Assembly (NCBI GenBank): GCA_963700065.1
Contig: CAVOWJ010000005.1
Coordinates: 620,953 to 684,952, forward strand
Direction of reading: 5' to 3'
DNA: 64,000 nt
DNA from: an uncultured Acidobacteriota bacterium
Lineage (GTDB): Bacteria; Acidobacteriota; Vicinamibacteria; Vicinamibacterales; JAKQTR01
In this document: one piece after another, positions 38,331 through 44,968 of the stretch
Layout of the letters: each line of letters begins with the position of its first letter
Numbering within the stretch: position 1 is the first letter of the stretch
The notes under the pieces: generated by a model
Seen by the model: only the letters and a program-made list of their open reading frames with translations
The model's database searches: none
Told to the model about the DNA's origin: nothing
Made by a program: the position numbers and the translations under genes

Positions 38331-39728
38331 GTGGCTCCTGGCTCCAAGACCGTCCTCGTCGTCGACGACGACGAGGGGATGCGCGACACGCTGACGGCCA
38401 TCCTGCGCCGCGACTACCGCGTGCTGCGCGCGGCCACGGGCGAGATCGGGCTGTCCATCCTCGACCGCGAAACCGTGGACGTCGTGCTGCTCGACGTGCG
38501 GCTGCCGGGCATGGGCGGCTTCGAGATGCTGCAGGAGATCAGGGAGACGCAGCGCCTCGTCGAGGTCATCATGATCTCGGCCATCAACGAGGTCGAGACC
38601 GCCGTCCGCGCCATGAAGCTCGGCGCCTATCACTACATCACCAAGGACTTCGAGTACGACGCCGTGCTGTCGCTCGTCCGCAACGCGTCGGACCGCACCG
38701 ATCTCCACCGCAAGGTGATGTCGCTGAGCGCCCAGGTGGCCGACGATCGCGACCGGCCGTTCATCACGGGCTCGAGCCGCGCGATGCGCGAGATCCTCGA
38801 CCTGGTGCGCAAGGTGGCCGGCCTCGACACGACGGTGCTCATCCTCGGCGAGAGCGGCACCGGCAAGGAGCTGCTGGCCCGCATGATCCACCGCGAGTCG
38901 GCCCGCGCCGACGGCCCCTTCATGCCGGTCAACCTGGCGGCCATCCCCGCCGACCTGGTCGAGTCGGCGCTGTTCGGCCACGAGAAGGGCTCGTTCACCG
39001 GCGCGGTGCGCCAGCAGATCGGGAAGTTCGAGCTGGCCGACCGCGGCACGCTGTTCCTCGACGAGATCGGCGAGCTGAAACCCGACGTGCAGGCGAAGCT
39101 GCTGCGCGCGATCCAGGAGTCGGAAATCGAGCGGGTCGGCGGCGGCCGCCCCATCCGCGTGAACCTGCGGATCATCGCGGCCACCAACGTCGATCTCGAG
39201 AAGGCCGTGCGCGACGGGCGCTTCCGCGAGGACCTCTACTACCGGGTCAGGGTCATCCCGATGCAGGTGCCGCCGCTGCGCGAGCGGATGGAAGACCTCG
39301 ACGCGCTGGTGACCTTCTTCCTGGGCCGCTACAACACGAAGTTCAGGAAGCAGGTGCTGGGCATCGAGCCGTCCGCCATGGAGGTGCTCGGGGCCTACCC
39401 GTGGCCCGGCAACGTCCGCGAGCTCGAGAACCTGATGGAGCGCCTGGTGGCCGTCAGCGAGGGCGACTGGATCGGCGACGAGGACCTGCCCTACGAGTTC
39501 CACCTGGCGAAGCTCGTCAGGCCCGACGAGACGACCGAGGGCCTCTTCGACCGCGCCTGCGAGACCTTCGAGCGCAACTTCATCCTCAAGACGCTCGAGC
39601 ACGAGCGCTGGAACGTGACGGCCGCGGCCCGCACGCTGGGCATGCCGCTCAGCACGCTCAAGTTCAAGATGGACCGCCTCGATATCCGCCAGATCGCCCG
39701 CAAGCTCCGCCGTGCAGGCCCGGCCTGA
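38331..39728 (+). CDS. Sigma54-dependent response regulator (NtrC family: REC, AAA+, Fis HTH)
   Basis: [15 protein letters not shown]...[13 protein letters not shown]. Walker A GESGTGKE. Sigma54-contact loop [11 protein letters not shown]-terminal [26 protein letters not shown] start with GAAAGGA upstream. Confidence 0.9.
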
Positions 39729-40002
39729 CCCTTGCAGGCTGCGTGGGTCAGCGACGAATCTGAACCTTGGGGGCGTCGCAGAAACTGCAACGGGTGTCTC
39801 GCTCTGATGTGGCAGCTGCCGCCACGTGTCTCCATTGTGGACACCGACGCGCACGGGCGTCTGCTGGCAGGATGCACCCACCATTCACGAGGCGCTTTCG
39901 CGTCATAATCGCTGCGTTCAAAGGGTCTCGTCGGCACGCGGCGCGCGGCGGCCCGCAGGGTCCGGCCGCCCCGGCCGGGGCTGCAGCCCCTCCCGCCGCC
40001 GC

Positions 40003-43184: not shown

Positions 43185-44968
43185 GCACGCTGCGCGTCCG
43201 CTTCGCGCTGATGCTCGCCACGGCCGCCGTGGTGCCGCTGCTCACGTACGGGGCGGTCTCGGTGTACTCCCTGCGCGAGAGCACGCGGCGCACGGTGACG
43301 GAGGGCAACATCAACCTCGCGCGGCAGGTGGCCGAGCAGGTGCGCCGCTATGTCGCCACCAACCTGCAGATTCTCGACGCGCTCGCCGCCGATCTCGACA
43401 GCACGGGGCTCGATGCGGCGCAACAGGATCGGATTCTCAAGAACTACGTCCTCCGCTTCCCGGAGTTCCGTGAACTGACGGCGTTCGACGCCGCAGGGCG
43501 CCCCGTGGCCACCAGCCGGCTGGGCGCGCCAGGCGTCCGCATCCCCGGCGCCGACGCGGTCGACCTCTACGGCGCCCGGATGTCGCCGGTGCACGTCGAC
43601 GACGACCTCCTGCCCACGGCGCTCGTGGCCGCGCCGGTCGGCCGCGGCGGCAGGCAGGCTGGCTGGCTCGTCGGCGAGTTCAGCATCGAGGAACTGTGGC
43701 GCCTGACCGGGCGCATCCGCGTGGGCGCGTCGGGCTACGTCATGGTGGCGGACCCGCGCGGCGGCCTGCTGGCCCACGGCAATCCCGAGCAGCGCTCGAC
43801 CGTTGCGCGCGGCGAGAGCCTCGCCGGTGACCCGATCGTGAAGGCGCTGCTCGGCGCCGCGCCCGGGACGCCGCAGGTCGTCGAGCGGCAGGGCCGGGGC
43901 GGCGTGCCCGTGGTCGCGGTCGGCATCCGCGTGCCGGAACTCGGCTGGATGGTGCTGGTCGAGCAGCCCGCCCGCGAGGCGTTCGCCGCGGCGCGCCGCC
44001 ACGAGCGTGATCTCATCGCGGCCATCAGCCTCGCGCTGCTCATCATGCTGCTCGCGGGCCTGGTCTGGGGCCGGTCGCTCATCCAGCCGATCCGCGAGAT
44101 CATCCGCGGCACCGAGGCCATCGCGGACGGCCGGCTCGACGAGCGCGTCCGCGTCACGACGAAGACCGAGCTGGGGCGGCTCGGCGAAGCGTTCAACACG
44201 ATGGCGGGCCGCCTCGGCGAGCTCCAGGAAGACGTGCGGAAGCAGGAGCGCCACGCCATGTTCGGCCGCGTGGCCGCGGGCCTGGTCCACGACCTGTCGC
44301 ACCCGTTCAAGAACGTCCAGAACAACTGCCGGCTCGTCGTCAAGATGCACGACGACCCGGAATACCTCGAGCTGTTCAAGCGCACGACCGACCGCGAGTT
44401 CGCCCAGGTCAAGCGCGTGTTCGAGGATCTCCGCAACATCGCGCGGCCGATGCCGATGGAGCGCTTCCCGCTGGACCTGAACAAGCTGGTGTCGGACGTC
44501 GCGGAGTCGATGCGCGCCAACGCGTCGGCCGCGGGCCTGACCATCGACCTGGATCTCGCCGCTGACACCCTCTACGTCGAAGGCGACATGTTCGCCCTGA
44601 GCCGCGTGTGCCGCAATCTCATGATGAACGCGATCGAGGCCACCGCGCCGAACGGGCGCATCACCCTCAGCACCGCCTCCGAGAACGGGCGCGCCGTGCT
44701 GCGCGTCGCCGACACGGGCTGCGGCATCCCGGCCGACCGGCTCGACACGATGTTCGAGGACTTCAATACGACGAAGCGCCAGGGCCTCGGCCTGGGCCTG
44801 GCGATCACGAAGAAGATCGTGGATCAGTCGGAAGGGACCATTGCCGCCACGAGCGTCGTGGGCGCGGGCACGACCTTCGCCGTGTCGCTTGCACGGGCCC
44901 CAGCGCCGGCGGAGGGAATTCCCGGCGAGCCTGGCGGCGAGCCGGCCGACTGGCCGGCGCCGGTGTAG
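43181..44968 (+). CDS. Sensor histidine kinase (TM, Cache-like periplasmic domain, TM, HAMP, HisKA, HATPase)
   Basis: The ATG overlaps the SBP stop (ATGA 43181-43184). HAMP IQPIREIIRGTEAIADGRLDERV. H-box AAGLVHDLSHPFKN. N/G boxes NLMMNAIEA, VADTGCGI and GLGLGLAI. Confidence 0.9.
   Translation: MSTLRVRFALMLATAAVVPLLTYGAVSVYSLRESTRRTVTEGNINLARQVAEQVRRYVATNLQILDALAADLDSTGLDAAQQDRILKNYVLRFPEFRELTAFDAAGRPVATSRLGAPGVRIPGADAVDLYGARMSPVHVDDDLLPTALVAAPVGRGGRQAGWLVGEFSIEELWRLTGRIRVGASGYVMVADPRGGLLAHGNPEQRSTVARGESLAGDPIVKALLGAAPGTPQVVERQGRGGVPVVAVGIRVPELGWMVLVEQPAREAFAAARRHERDLIAAISLALLIMLLAGLVWGRSLIQPIREIIRGTEAIADGRLDERVRVTTKTELGRLGEAFNTMAGRLGELQEDVRKQERHAMFGRVAAGLVHDLSHPFKNVQNNCRLVVKMHDDPEYLELFKRTTDREFAQVKRVFEDLRNIARPMPMERFPLDLNKLVSDVAESMRANASAAGLTIDLDLAADTLYVEGDMFALSRVCRNLMMNAIEATAPNGRITLSTASENGRAVLRVADTGCGIPADRLDTMFEDFNTTKRQGLGLGLAITKKIVDQSEGTIAATSVVGAGTTFAVSLARAPAPAEGIPGEPGGEPADWPAPV

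Follow-up and report, generated by a model that had tools for sequence, protein, structure and literature searches.

The 64,000-nucleotide stretch analysed here (the window) lies on contig CAVOWJ010000005.1 of the genome of an uncultured soil acidobacterium (Acidobacteriota; assembly GCA_963700065.1; 5.5 Mb, 15 contigs, 87.5% complete) and has a G+C content of approximately 70%. On its plus strand, positions 38331 to 44968 hold five genes encoding a response regulator, a radical S-adenosylmethionine (SAM) maturase, a 30-residue peptide, a family-5 solute-binding protein (SBP) and a sensor histidine kinase. We propose that these genes form a module of the type that makes ribosomally synthesised peptides modified after translation (RiPPs), and that this module has its own receptor, the SBP and the kinase sensing the module's own product; we give this reading a probability of about 0.5. 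A preliminary description of this DNA had listed the same genes as one tight, co-directional block, and domain hits and translations recovered every listed part in place.

The partners of the maturase are retained across phyla

The named relatives of the window are metagenome-assembled genomes (MAGs) of Vicinamibacterales and Acidobacteriota. The block of regulator, maturase, peptide, family-5 SBP and kinase genes was found in all Vicinamibacterales-type loci with enough DNA, with maturase identities of 53-97%. Since the flanks (lpdA, HU and queF) are syntenic too, these loci alone are weak evidence. A distant set of 28 loci encoding maturases of the same clade (26-34% identity), from phyla including Planctomycetota, Omnitrophota, Auribacterota, Nitrospirota and Desulfobacterota, was compared with a control set of 35 loci from other SPASM families. 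In the distant loci the gene order was shuffled and the partners were retained. A TonB-dependent receptor was encoded in 22 of the 28 distant loci as opposed to 1 of the 35 controls, and a periplasmic SBP (family 5 or PF04392) in 21 as opposed to none; the corresponding counts were at least 18 and 2 for a kinase, and 11 and 0 for a sigma-54 regulator. Homologues of the maturase therefore keep the association with an SBP, a kinase, a regulator and a short open reading frame (ORF), one of the points on which the preliminary description had made its proposal depend.

Several distant loci carried an ABC exporter gene directly behind the maturase gene. The fullest clusters, L036 and L039, comprised, in this order, genes for a response regulator, a receptor, a family-5 SBP, a peptide, a maturase, a fused ABC exporter and a kinase, and L031 encoded a regulator, receptor, maturase, peptide, family-5 SBP, major facilitator superfamily protein (on the opposite strand) and kinase. 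Nitrospirota and Geobacter-type loci encoded a PF04392 binding protein in place of the family-5 SBP. In true geopeptide loci, the receptor, SBP and kinase genes formed a divergent operon, in one case with a sigma-54 regulator gene. No importer permease was found in any locus examined, and the ABC genes in the relatives' loci were of the fused exporter type (PF00664 plus PF00005). This architecture, with an exporter, an outer-membrane receptor, an orphan binder and no importer, fits a product that would leave the cell and return only as far as the periplasm. The lineage of the window has dropped the receptor and the exporter from its locus.

The binding protein is predicted to dock on the sensor kinase

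The SBP matched PF00496 (E 3e-60) and its N-terminus reads as a lipoprotein signal, with a lipobox Cys that is at least 90% conserved. The start codon is uncertain, GTG 41685 or TTG 41679. The gene has no well-placed canonical start codon combined with a charged N-region, and a CTG approximately 20 nt upstream would give a textbook lipoprotein signal. Its stop codon overlaps the ATG of the kinase gene at 43181 as ATGA, and the kinase has dCache_1, HAMP and HATPase_c domains, in agreement with the family-5 SBP and overlapping Cache/HAMP kinase of the preliminary description. Cognate ABC permease or ATPase genes for an importer were found neither in the block nor in the relatives' loci examined.

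When the SBP (residues 11-499) and the periplasmic domain of the kinase (residues 32-288) were modelled together with ESMFold2, the complex scored 0.62 and the best of three controls 0.01. Of 80 solved complexes, 58 had reached this score mark, as had 2 of 110 mismatched pairs; these counts hold only roughly here, the prediction having been made with custom, shallow 16-row alignments. At least 80% of the contacts agreed between runs and the partner predicted local distance difference test (pLDDT) score was 85 or higher. The modelled interface involves SBP residues 207-216 and 335-351 and kinase residues 87-97, 112-115 and 139-144. We know of no solved complex of a family-5 SBP with a dCache domain, and it seems unlikely that the score reflects recall of a known structure by the model. 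The prediction supports the SBP as a putative co-sensor of the kinase that would dock on its dCache domain; it bears on docking and not on the ligand.

A transporterless periplasmic SBP that docks on a kinase, with the signal reaching a sigma-54-dependent regulator, is known from the LuxP/LuxQ/LuxO system of Vibrio, and the combination of orphan SBP, kinase and sigma-54 regulator proposed for the window resembles it. LuxP, which binds AI-2 rather than a peptide, belongs to a different SBP class; LuxQ, a hybrid kinase, acts via LuxU, and no biosynthetic enzyme is encoded next to it. The window regulator scored 313 bits against the LuxO model (cut-off 800).

A second family-5 SBP, encoded elsewhere in the same genome (G000:C7:810304-811890), scored 127 bits against the SBP of the Omnitrophota module, compared with 119 bits for the window SBP.

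The peptide core co-diverges with the binding protein

Exploratory Mantel tests on 12 loci indicated that divergence of the peptide core follows that of the SBP (r 0.53). The partial correlation was 0.61 given the maturase (p 0.0006), 0.68 given the sensor domain of the kinase and 0.34 given its cytoplasmic part (p 0.027). For the leader of the peptide, the partial r was 0.38 with the maturase (p 0.006) and 0.00 with the SBP; its divergence thus follows the former and not the latter. A replicate in the clade with C-C peptides gave the same direction, with values of 0.23 for core and receptor (p 0.036, nominal) and 0.42 for leader and maturase (p 0.005). Together with the SBP-kinase model, the co-divergence of core with SBP and of leader with maturase favours, short of proof, a loop that senses its own product.

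The maturase is a CteB-like enzyme in a sister clade of the geopeptide maturases

The maturase matched Radical_SAM (PF04055, E 6e-17) and Fer4_12. In a 30-sequence alignment the radical SAM motif C-x3-C-x2-C (C103, C107, C110) was invariant, as were seven SPASM Cys residues (C369, C388, C426, C429, C435, C439, C455), and the translation of the window gene shows the same seven-Cys pattern; a Pfam scan at E 0.01 did not list a SPASM match. An AlphaFold2 model of the orthologue P0001, which is 97% identical to the window protein (pLDDT 83, predicted TM-score 0.82), consisted of an N-terminal unit of three strands and three helices, a SAM barrel and a SPASM domain. The N-terminal unit (strands 7-11, 17-21 and 26-30; helices 32-42, 53-64 and 75-87; pLDDT approximately 90) has, in this model, the structure of a PqqD-like RiPP recognition element (RRE). 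The best fold match in the PDB was CteB (TM-score 0.65-0.73), followed by TigE, ChlB, SuiB and the anaerobic sulfatase-maturating enzyme (anSME), and CteB was also the best PDB sequence match. The RRE-like N-terminus typical of RiPP maturases, as the preliminary description had put it, is borne out by the P0001 model and by the structure and sequence matches to CteB. The maturase is a CteB-like enzyme made of an RRE, a radical SAM domain and a SPASM domain.

The best NCBIfam model was TIGR04280, the geopeptide radical SAM maturase. The C-terminal piece of the window protein scored 247 bits and the intact P0001 scored 260.7, below the cut-off of 400; Geobacter-type proteins scored 507-654. With approximately 261 bits against a cut-off of 400, sequence comparison places the maturase in a sister clade of the TIGR04280 family. 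The next-best models were all for maturases of Cys peptides (CefB, TIGR04463, PapB, FlmE/OhkG, QhpD and SCIFF). A sulfatase-maturase identity, which the preliminary description had considered as an alternative, was rejected; TIGR03942 gave 59 bits against a cut-off of 349, and anSME ranked under CteB, TigE, ChlB and SuiB in the fold search.

The order of RRE, radical SAM domain and seven-Cys SPASM domain is shared with the thioether-forming, ranthipeptide-type enzymes CteB/SCIFF, PapB and QhpD, and the PapB, SCIFF, QhpD and CefB models all match the window maturase far below their cut-offs. Similarly to the substrates of these enzymes, window-type peptides have an essential Cys, usually with Asp, Glu or Thr at position +5; PapB is reported to link Cys to Asp or Glu (PMC9413430). 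By this likeness alone, a Cys thioether of the ranthipeptide or sactipeptide type would be the most likely product. The ranthipeptide-type systems differ from the window in having no SBP, kinase or sigma-54 wiring, and the window-type maturase differs by a Cys-containing insert of approximately 45 residues. This insert, located after the radical SAM core and before the SPASM domain (P0001 residues 293-338, window approximately 40922-41059), has four Cys (C-x15-C-x2-C-x2-C), was modelled with low confidence and might bind a further metal or cluster.

Streptide and other quorum-regulated radical SAM RiPPs of streptococci also combine an RRE-containing radical SAM/SPASM enzyme that modifies a short peptide with a peptide-sensing regulator, and SuiB is among the structural matches of the window-type maturase. 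They differ in being Gram-positive systems with cytoplasmic sensing of the Rgg type, in which the sensed SHP is not the modified product, and in lacking an SBP, a kinase and sigma-54.

A conserved single-cysteine peptide gene follows the maturase gene

The preliminary description had pointed to a 30-codon ORF with a strong Shine-Dalgarno sequence, overlapping the maturase stop codon. This ORF was confirmed; its ATG lies in an ATGA over the stop and is preceded by AGGAGGAG, and an ORF of 29-35 codons directly follows the maturase gene in 15 orthologous loci. The leader is basic and strand-like (M-K-[IV]-x-[VI]-[VI]-K-K). Cys18 is the only invariant residue, forming C-P-W in 13 of the 15 loci, and the position Cys+5 is usually Asp or Glu and is Thr in the window peptide. 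This conservation indicates that the small ORF is a real gene.

In approximately 21 of 25 distant loci, a short Cys peptide gene with a Shine-Dalgarno sequence adjoined the maturase gene, and the leader pattern was common to these peptides. In these distant loci the short ORF stood just upstream of the maturase gene, its leader being similar and its core C-C; in L031, as in the window, the peptide has one Cys and its gene lies downstream. The window peptide thus belongs to a broad peptide family, as a variant that has one Cys and is encoded downstream.

The geopeptide system, defined computationally by TIGR04280 and TIGR04229 and the best-scoring named family for the window maturase, also pairs a short Cys-core peptide with a beta-strand-like leader and an adjoining RRE/radical SAM/SPASM enzyme. 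Geobacter-type members likewise stand beside genes for a TonB-dependent receptor, a periplasmic SBP, a kinase and a sigma-54 regulator. In a geopeptide locus a TIGR04229 C-C peptide is encoded immediately upstream of the maturase, whereas the window peptide is encoded after it and has one Cys, usually in C-P-W. Its leader is basic, that of Geobacter geopeptides acidic. TIGR04229 did not match the small ORF even at E 10, and nothing in the genome exceeded 12 bits. The window SBP also belongs to family 5 and not to PF04392, and a TonB-dependent receptor gene is lacking. Taken on sequence, the window system is best described as a reduced sister variant of the geopeptide family. The statement of the preliminary description that the wiring was not recognised as a characterised system stands in so far as literature searches on geopeptides, on TIGR04280 and on radical SAM RiPPs linked to sigma-54, kinases, TonB or SBPs turned up no paper, experimental or other, about this family; it falls short in that a named relative, the TIGR04280/TIGR04229 system, exists. 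Literature matches to 'geopeptide' were set aside as unrelated 'gageopeptides'.

One sediment RNA-library run contained a 196-nt contig identical to 41392-41587, which spans the peptide gene. This is not counted as evidence of expression, because DNA can be present in an RNA library and genes cannot be ranked by contig depth.

A conserved sigma-54 promoter element precedes the maturase gene

The response regulator matched Response_reg (PF00072), Sigma54_activat (PF00158, E 1e-68), AAA_lid_14 and HTH_8 (PF02954). It therefore has the receiver domain, AAA+ sigma-54 interaction domain and Fis-type helix-turn-helix of an NtrC-family activator, and the translation contains the sigma-54 contact loop G-S-F-T-G-A noted in the preliminary description, one residue off the GAFTGA consensus. 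It matched AtoC/NtrC-like NCBIfam models below their equivalog cut-offs. The orthologue in L009 has the same length, 465 residues.

Also recovered was the GG-N10-GC candidate which the preliminary description had placed 27 nt before the maturase ATG. The candidate, CGGAACGCCCCTTGCA, lies in the 317-nt spacer between the regulator and maturase genes and has its GG at 40004-5 and its GC at 40016-7, with 10 nt between them. All 20 orthologous loci examined have a like element, [TC]GG-N10-TTGC[AT], at a distance of 19-170 nt before the maturase start. Out of a maximum of 12, it scored at least 9 in 18 loci, 14 of which reached at least 10, and 8 in the other 2. From a background of 0.046 per kb, approximately 0.3 sites scoring at least 10 were expected, against the 14 loci observed. 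GG/GC spacing, flanking consensus and conserved position are thus those of a sigma-54 promoter, and rpoN was found in the host genome. Like -24/-12 sites also occur in L036, where one precedes the peptide gene by 57 nt, and in L039, where one precedes the SBP gene by 20 nt. A sigma-70 promoter and terminator scan of the block returned nothing relevant on the plus strand. A palindrome, TGTC-N9-GACA, was rejected as evidence for an activator site; it is kept only in the closest relatives (window, L007 and L009) and is missing from more distant orthologous loci.

A perfect, GC-rich hairpin of 14-15 bp lies between the peptide and SBP genes (z -3.5), and none of 200 shuffles folded equally well. 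Hairpins occupy the same position in most orthologous loci, and in L015, L019 and L035 they have a T-run and are canonical terminators. This suggests a transcript of the maturase and peptide genes that stops at the hairpin or is stabilised there, the genes for the SBP and the kinase being reached by read-through. The hairpin overlaps the region where the SBP signal peptide may begin.

In the Nitrospirota relative L049 (6002-6842), a good -24/-12 site lies just past the sigma-54 regulator gene, and after it comes a LuxR-family gene that encodes an autoinducer-binding domain. L044 and L047 have similar sites after the regulator gene.

Proposed signalling loop and alternative readings

In the loop that we propose, the NtrC-family regulator would activate the sigma-54 promoter, which would drive the maturase and the 30-residue precursor and, by read-through of the hairpin, also the SBP and the kinase. 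The RRE domain of the maturase would bind the basic leader and the enzyme would modify the core at the invariant Cys, the most likely product, by likeness to CteB, PapB and QhpD, being a thioether cross-link from the Cys to a residue a few positions downstream. The product would exit the cell by a route encoded outside the block and be bound in the periplasm by the lipoprotein SBP, which has no transporter partner. The loaded SBP would dock on the dCache domain of the kinase, and phosphorylation of the regulator would close what we take to be a positive loop. The product could be either a cell-to-cell signal or a metal-carrying molecule that is sensed on its return.

Several observations weigh against product sensing. 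The maturase reading frame is broken in this assembly, a point discussed below. The genes of the block include no exporter, leader protease or outer-membrane receptor; the absence of the first two had been conceded by the preliminary description. An orthologue of the relatives' TonB-dependent receptor was not found elsewhere in the host genome (best match 72 bits), a result that is not proof of absence because the genome is incomplete, and the ABC-exporter matches elsewhere in the genome were generic. The promoter motif alone is not above chance (5 matches in the window with up to 2 mismatches, 9.6 expected), and the candidate carries weight because of its position and its conservation in orthologous loci. 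The loci behind the co-divergence values are related and Mantel tests are liberal; in the C-C clade, the partial correlation of core and SBP was 0.16 and not significant (p 0.12). Finally, the nearest named or solved relatives of the SBP (NikA, Opp5A_nikA, CntA, GsiB/YliB and opine binders) bind nickel chelates, glutathione and opines, not long peptides, and for this reason the ligand may be a small fragment or a metal complex.

One alternative is that the SBP and the kinase detect an outside ligand that has nothing to do with the peptide (a thiol compound, a metal chelate or a small peptide, for instance). The regulator would then switch on a modified peptide that is only an output and has its role elsewhere, perhaps as an antimicrobial or as a factor inside the cell. 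SBP-dependent kinases often sense nutrients, the SBP resembles NikA, GsiB and opine binders, the dCache domain could itself bind a ligand, and the block encodes no exporter or protease. Against this, the association of peptide and maturase with receptor, SBP and kinase outlasts both the shuffling of genes across phyla and the exchange of SBP family between SBP5 and PF04392, which is hard to explain if the ligand is unrelated to the peptide. The exporters directly behind the maturase in several relatives and the co-divergence of peptide core and SBP also speak against an outside cue, and we consider it rather unlikely.

A special case of product sensing is that the product is a metallophore whose metal-loaded form is taken back and sensed, so that the loop would report metal and not cell density. 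TonB-dependent receptors, present in most of the distant loci, typically import metal chelates. The closest named relatives of the SBP are the nickel or metallophore binders NikA, Opp5A_nikA and CntA, and the peptide cores have Cys-Cys or Cys. The layout parallels that of methanobactin operons, which encode the Cys peptide MbnA, the receptor MbnT and the family-5 binder MbnE and have no permease gene; the secretion of a Cys peptide, its TonB-dependent re-uptake and a family-5 binder recall L036, L039 and L031. Methanobactins are modified by MbnB/C, which are not radical SAM enzymes, and are regulated by a sigma/anti-sigma pair, whereas the window has a radical SAM enzyme, a kinase and a sigma-54 regulator and no receptor. 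A metallophore is also disfavoured by the absence of an inner-membrane importer from every locus examined, by the single Cys of window-type peptides, by the loss of the receptor in this lineage and by the consumption of the thiol that would follow if the enzyme, as its nearest relatives do, formed a thioether. We regard this case as quite improbable.

Sensing of the module's own product thus remains our preferred reading. Extended to the whole clade, it would describe a form of diderm cell-to-cell signalling in which a radical SAM-modified peptide is exported, mostly readmitted by TonB-dependent receptors, captured by an orphan SBP and read by a dCache kinase and a sigma-54 regulator, with core and receptor co-diversifying into lineage-specific pairs; we put this forward tentatively, as possible rather than probable. 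For Gram-positive bacteria, signalling by modified peptides that have dedicated receptors is well documented; in bacteria with an outer membrane it is barely known. The module is conserved and widespread, occurring in Vicinamibacterales and, as cousins, in at least six other phyla, and closely related sequences were seen in wetland and sediment metagenome runs. It links a radical SAM peptide with a receptor in the outer membrane, a binder in the periplasm, a kinase and a sigma-54 activator. Should the binder indeed sense the product, the family would be either a peptide signal pathway of diderms or a new class of ribosomal metallophores that have feedback built in. In addition, the named but uncharacterised geopeptide family gains a system context and a sister clade with a C-P-W core.

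The maturase reading frame is interrupted by one extra base

The maturase gene begins in frame 1 at ATG 40045 and continues in frame 2 to its stop; intact orthologues have 480 residues. The one-base correction near 40287 that the preliminary description had called for corresponds to an extra G at 40287/40288, missing in all relatives compared: the window reads GAATCGGTAC and L007, L008 and L009 read GAATC-GTAC. This was the single gap in the alignment to DNA of 98% (L007, L008) and 82% (L009) identity. Contigs from two wetland DNA runs and one sediment RNA-library run were also without the extra base; they differ from the window at 4-5 other positions and are therefore from relatives and not from this strain. 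Past the break an open frame continues, with 97% identity to the intact 480-residue orthologue.

Two further genes in the window are split within a protein family. A MacB-type permease gene (5819-8372, minus strand) is split near 7687, with MacB_PCD and FtsX in different frames, which looks like a one-base indel inside a single gene. A DDE_5 transposase gene (53130-54468, plus strand) is split near 53503 at profile position 103/105 into two frames, which could reflect an indel error, a decayed insertion sequence copy or programmed frameshifting. A scan of the phase of G+C at third codon positions (GC3) gave 94 candidate breaks per Mb here and 15 and 50 per Mb in two complete genomes of the same order. 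It is a rough indicator, those 15-50 per Mb being false positives, and of the three breaks that it proposed for the window, one was simply the boundary of a gene. The scan missed the maturase break because the part upstream of it is only 243 nt long. In long-contig MAGs of relatives (MFD series: L025, L026, L029, L030 and L035), module genes were in several frame pieces, as expected from long-read indel errors.

Collectively, the conserved frame, the other breaks in the window, the GC3 rate and the split genes of the MAGs indicate assembly indel errors, and the extra G is probably one of them. It could instead be real and very recent, the maturase being a pseudogene, with no modified peptide made and the module decaying here. 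The assembly does read the extra G, and this exact strain was found in none of the sequencing runs searched (half of the sampled words were present in the best one), so that no run with this strain contradicts it. Set against this are the three relatives and the three run contigs without the base, the open and highly similar frame downstream, the two further in-family breaks within the same 64 kb, the excess of GC3-phase candidates and the similarly split matches in long-read MAGs of relatives. Decay of the module in this genome is therefore unlikely.

Layout of the locus

Table 1 Features of the module on the plus strand, in window coordinates
Feature	Coordinates	Strand	Evidence or remark
NtrC-family sigma-54-dependent response regulator, 465 aa	38331..39728	+	Pfam and NCBIfam matches
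Palindrome TGTC-N9-GACA, possible activator binding site	39827..39843	+	approximately 175 nt upstream of promoter; weak
Sigma-54 -24/-12 promoter candidate	40003..40018	+	sequence reading, conservation
RRE + radical SAM + SPASM maturase, frame-broken	40045..41488	+	domains, alignment, orthologue model
30-codon precursor-peptide gene	41485..41577	+	strong Shine-Dalgarno sequence, ATGA overlap, conserved ORF
Perfect GC-rich hairpin, possible attenuator or RNA-stabilising 3' structure	41635..41666	+	fold z-score
Family-5 solute-binding lipoprotein, start 41679 or 41685	41685..43184	+	PF00496
Sensor histidine kinase: transmembrane segment, dCache_1, transmembrane segment, HAMP, HATPase_c	43181..44968	+	Pfam

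Both flanks are unremarkable and keep their synteny in relatives, and none of their genes looks linked to the module. The upstream flank (36196-38143, minus strand) encodes a TPR protein and a dihydrolipoyl dehydrogenase, and the downstream flank (45056-48848) encodes HU, QueF, an Smr protein and an M14 peptidase.

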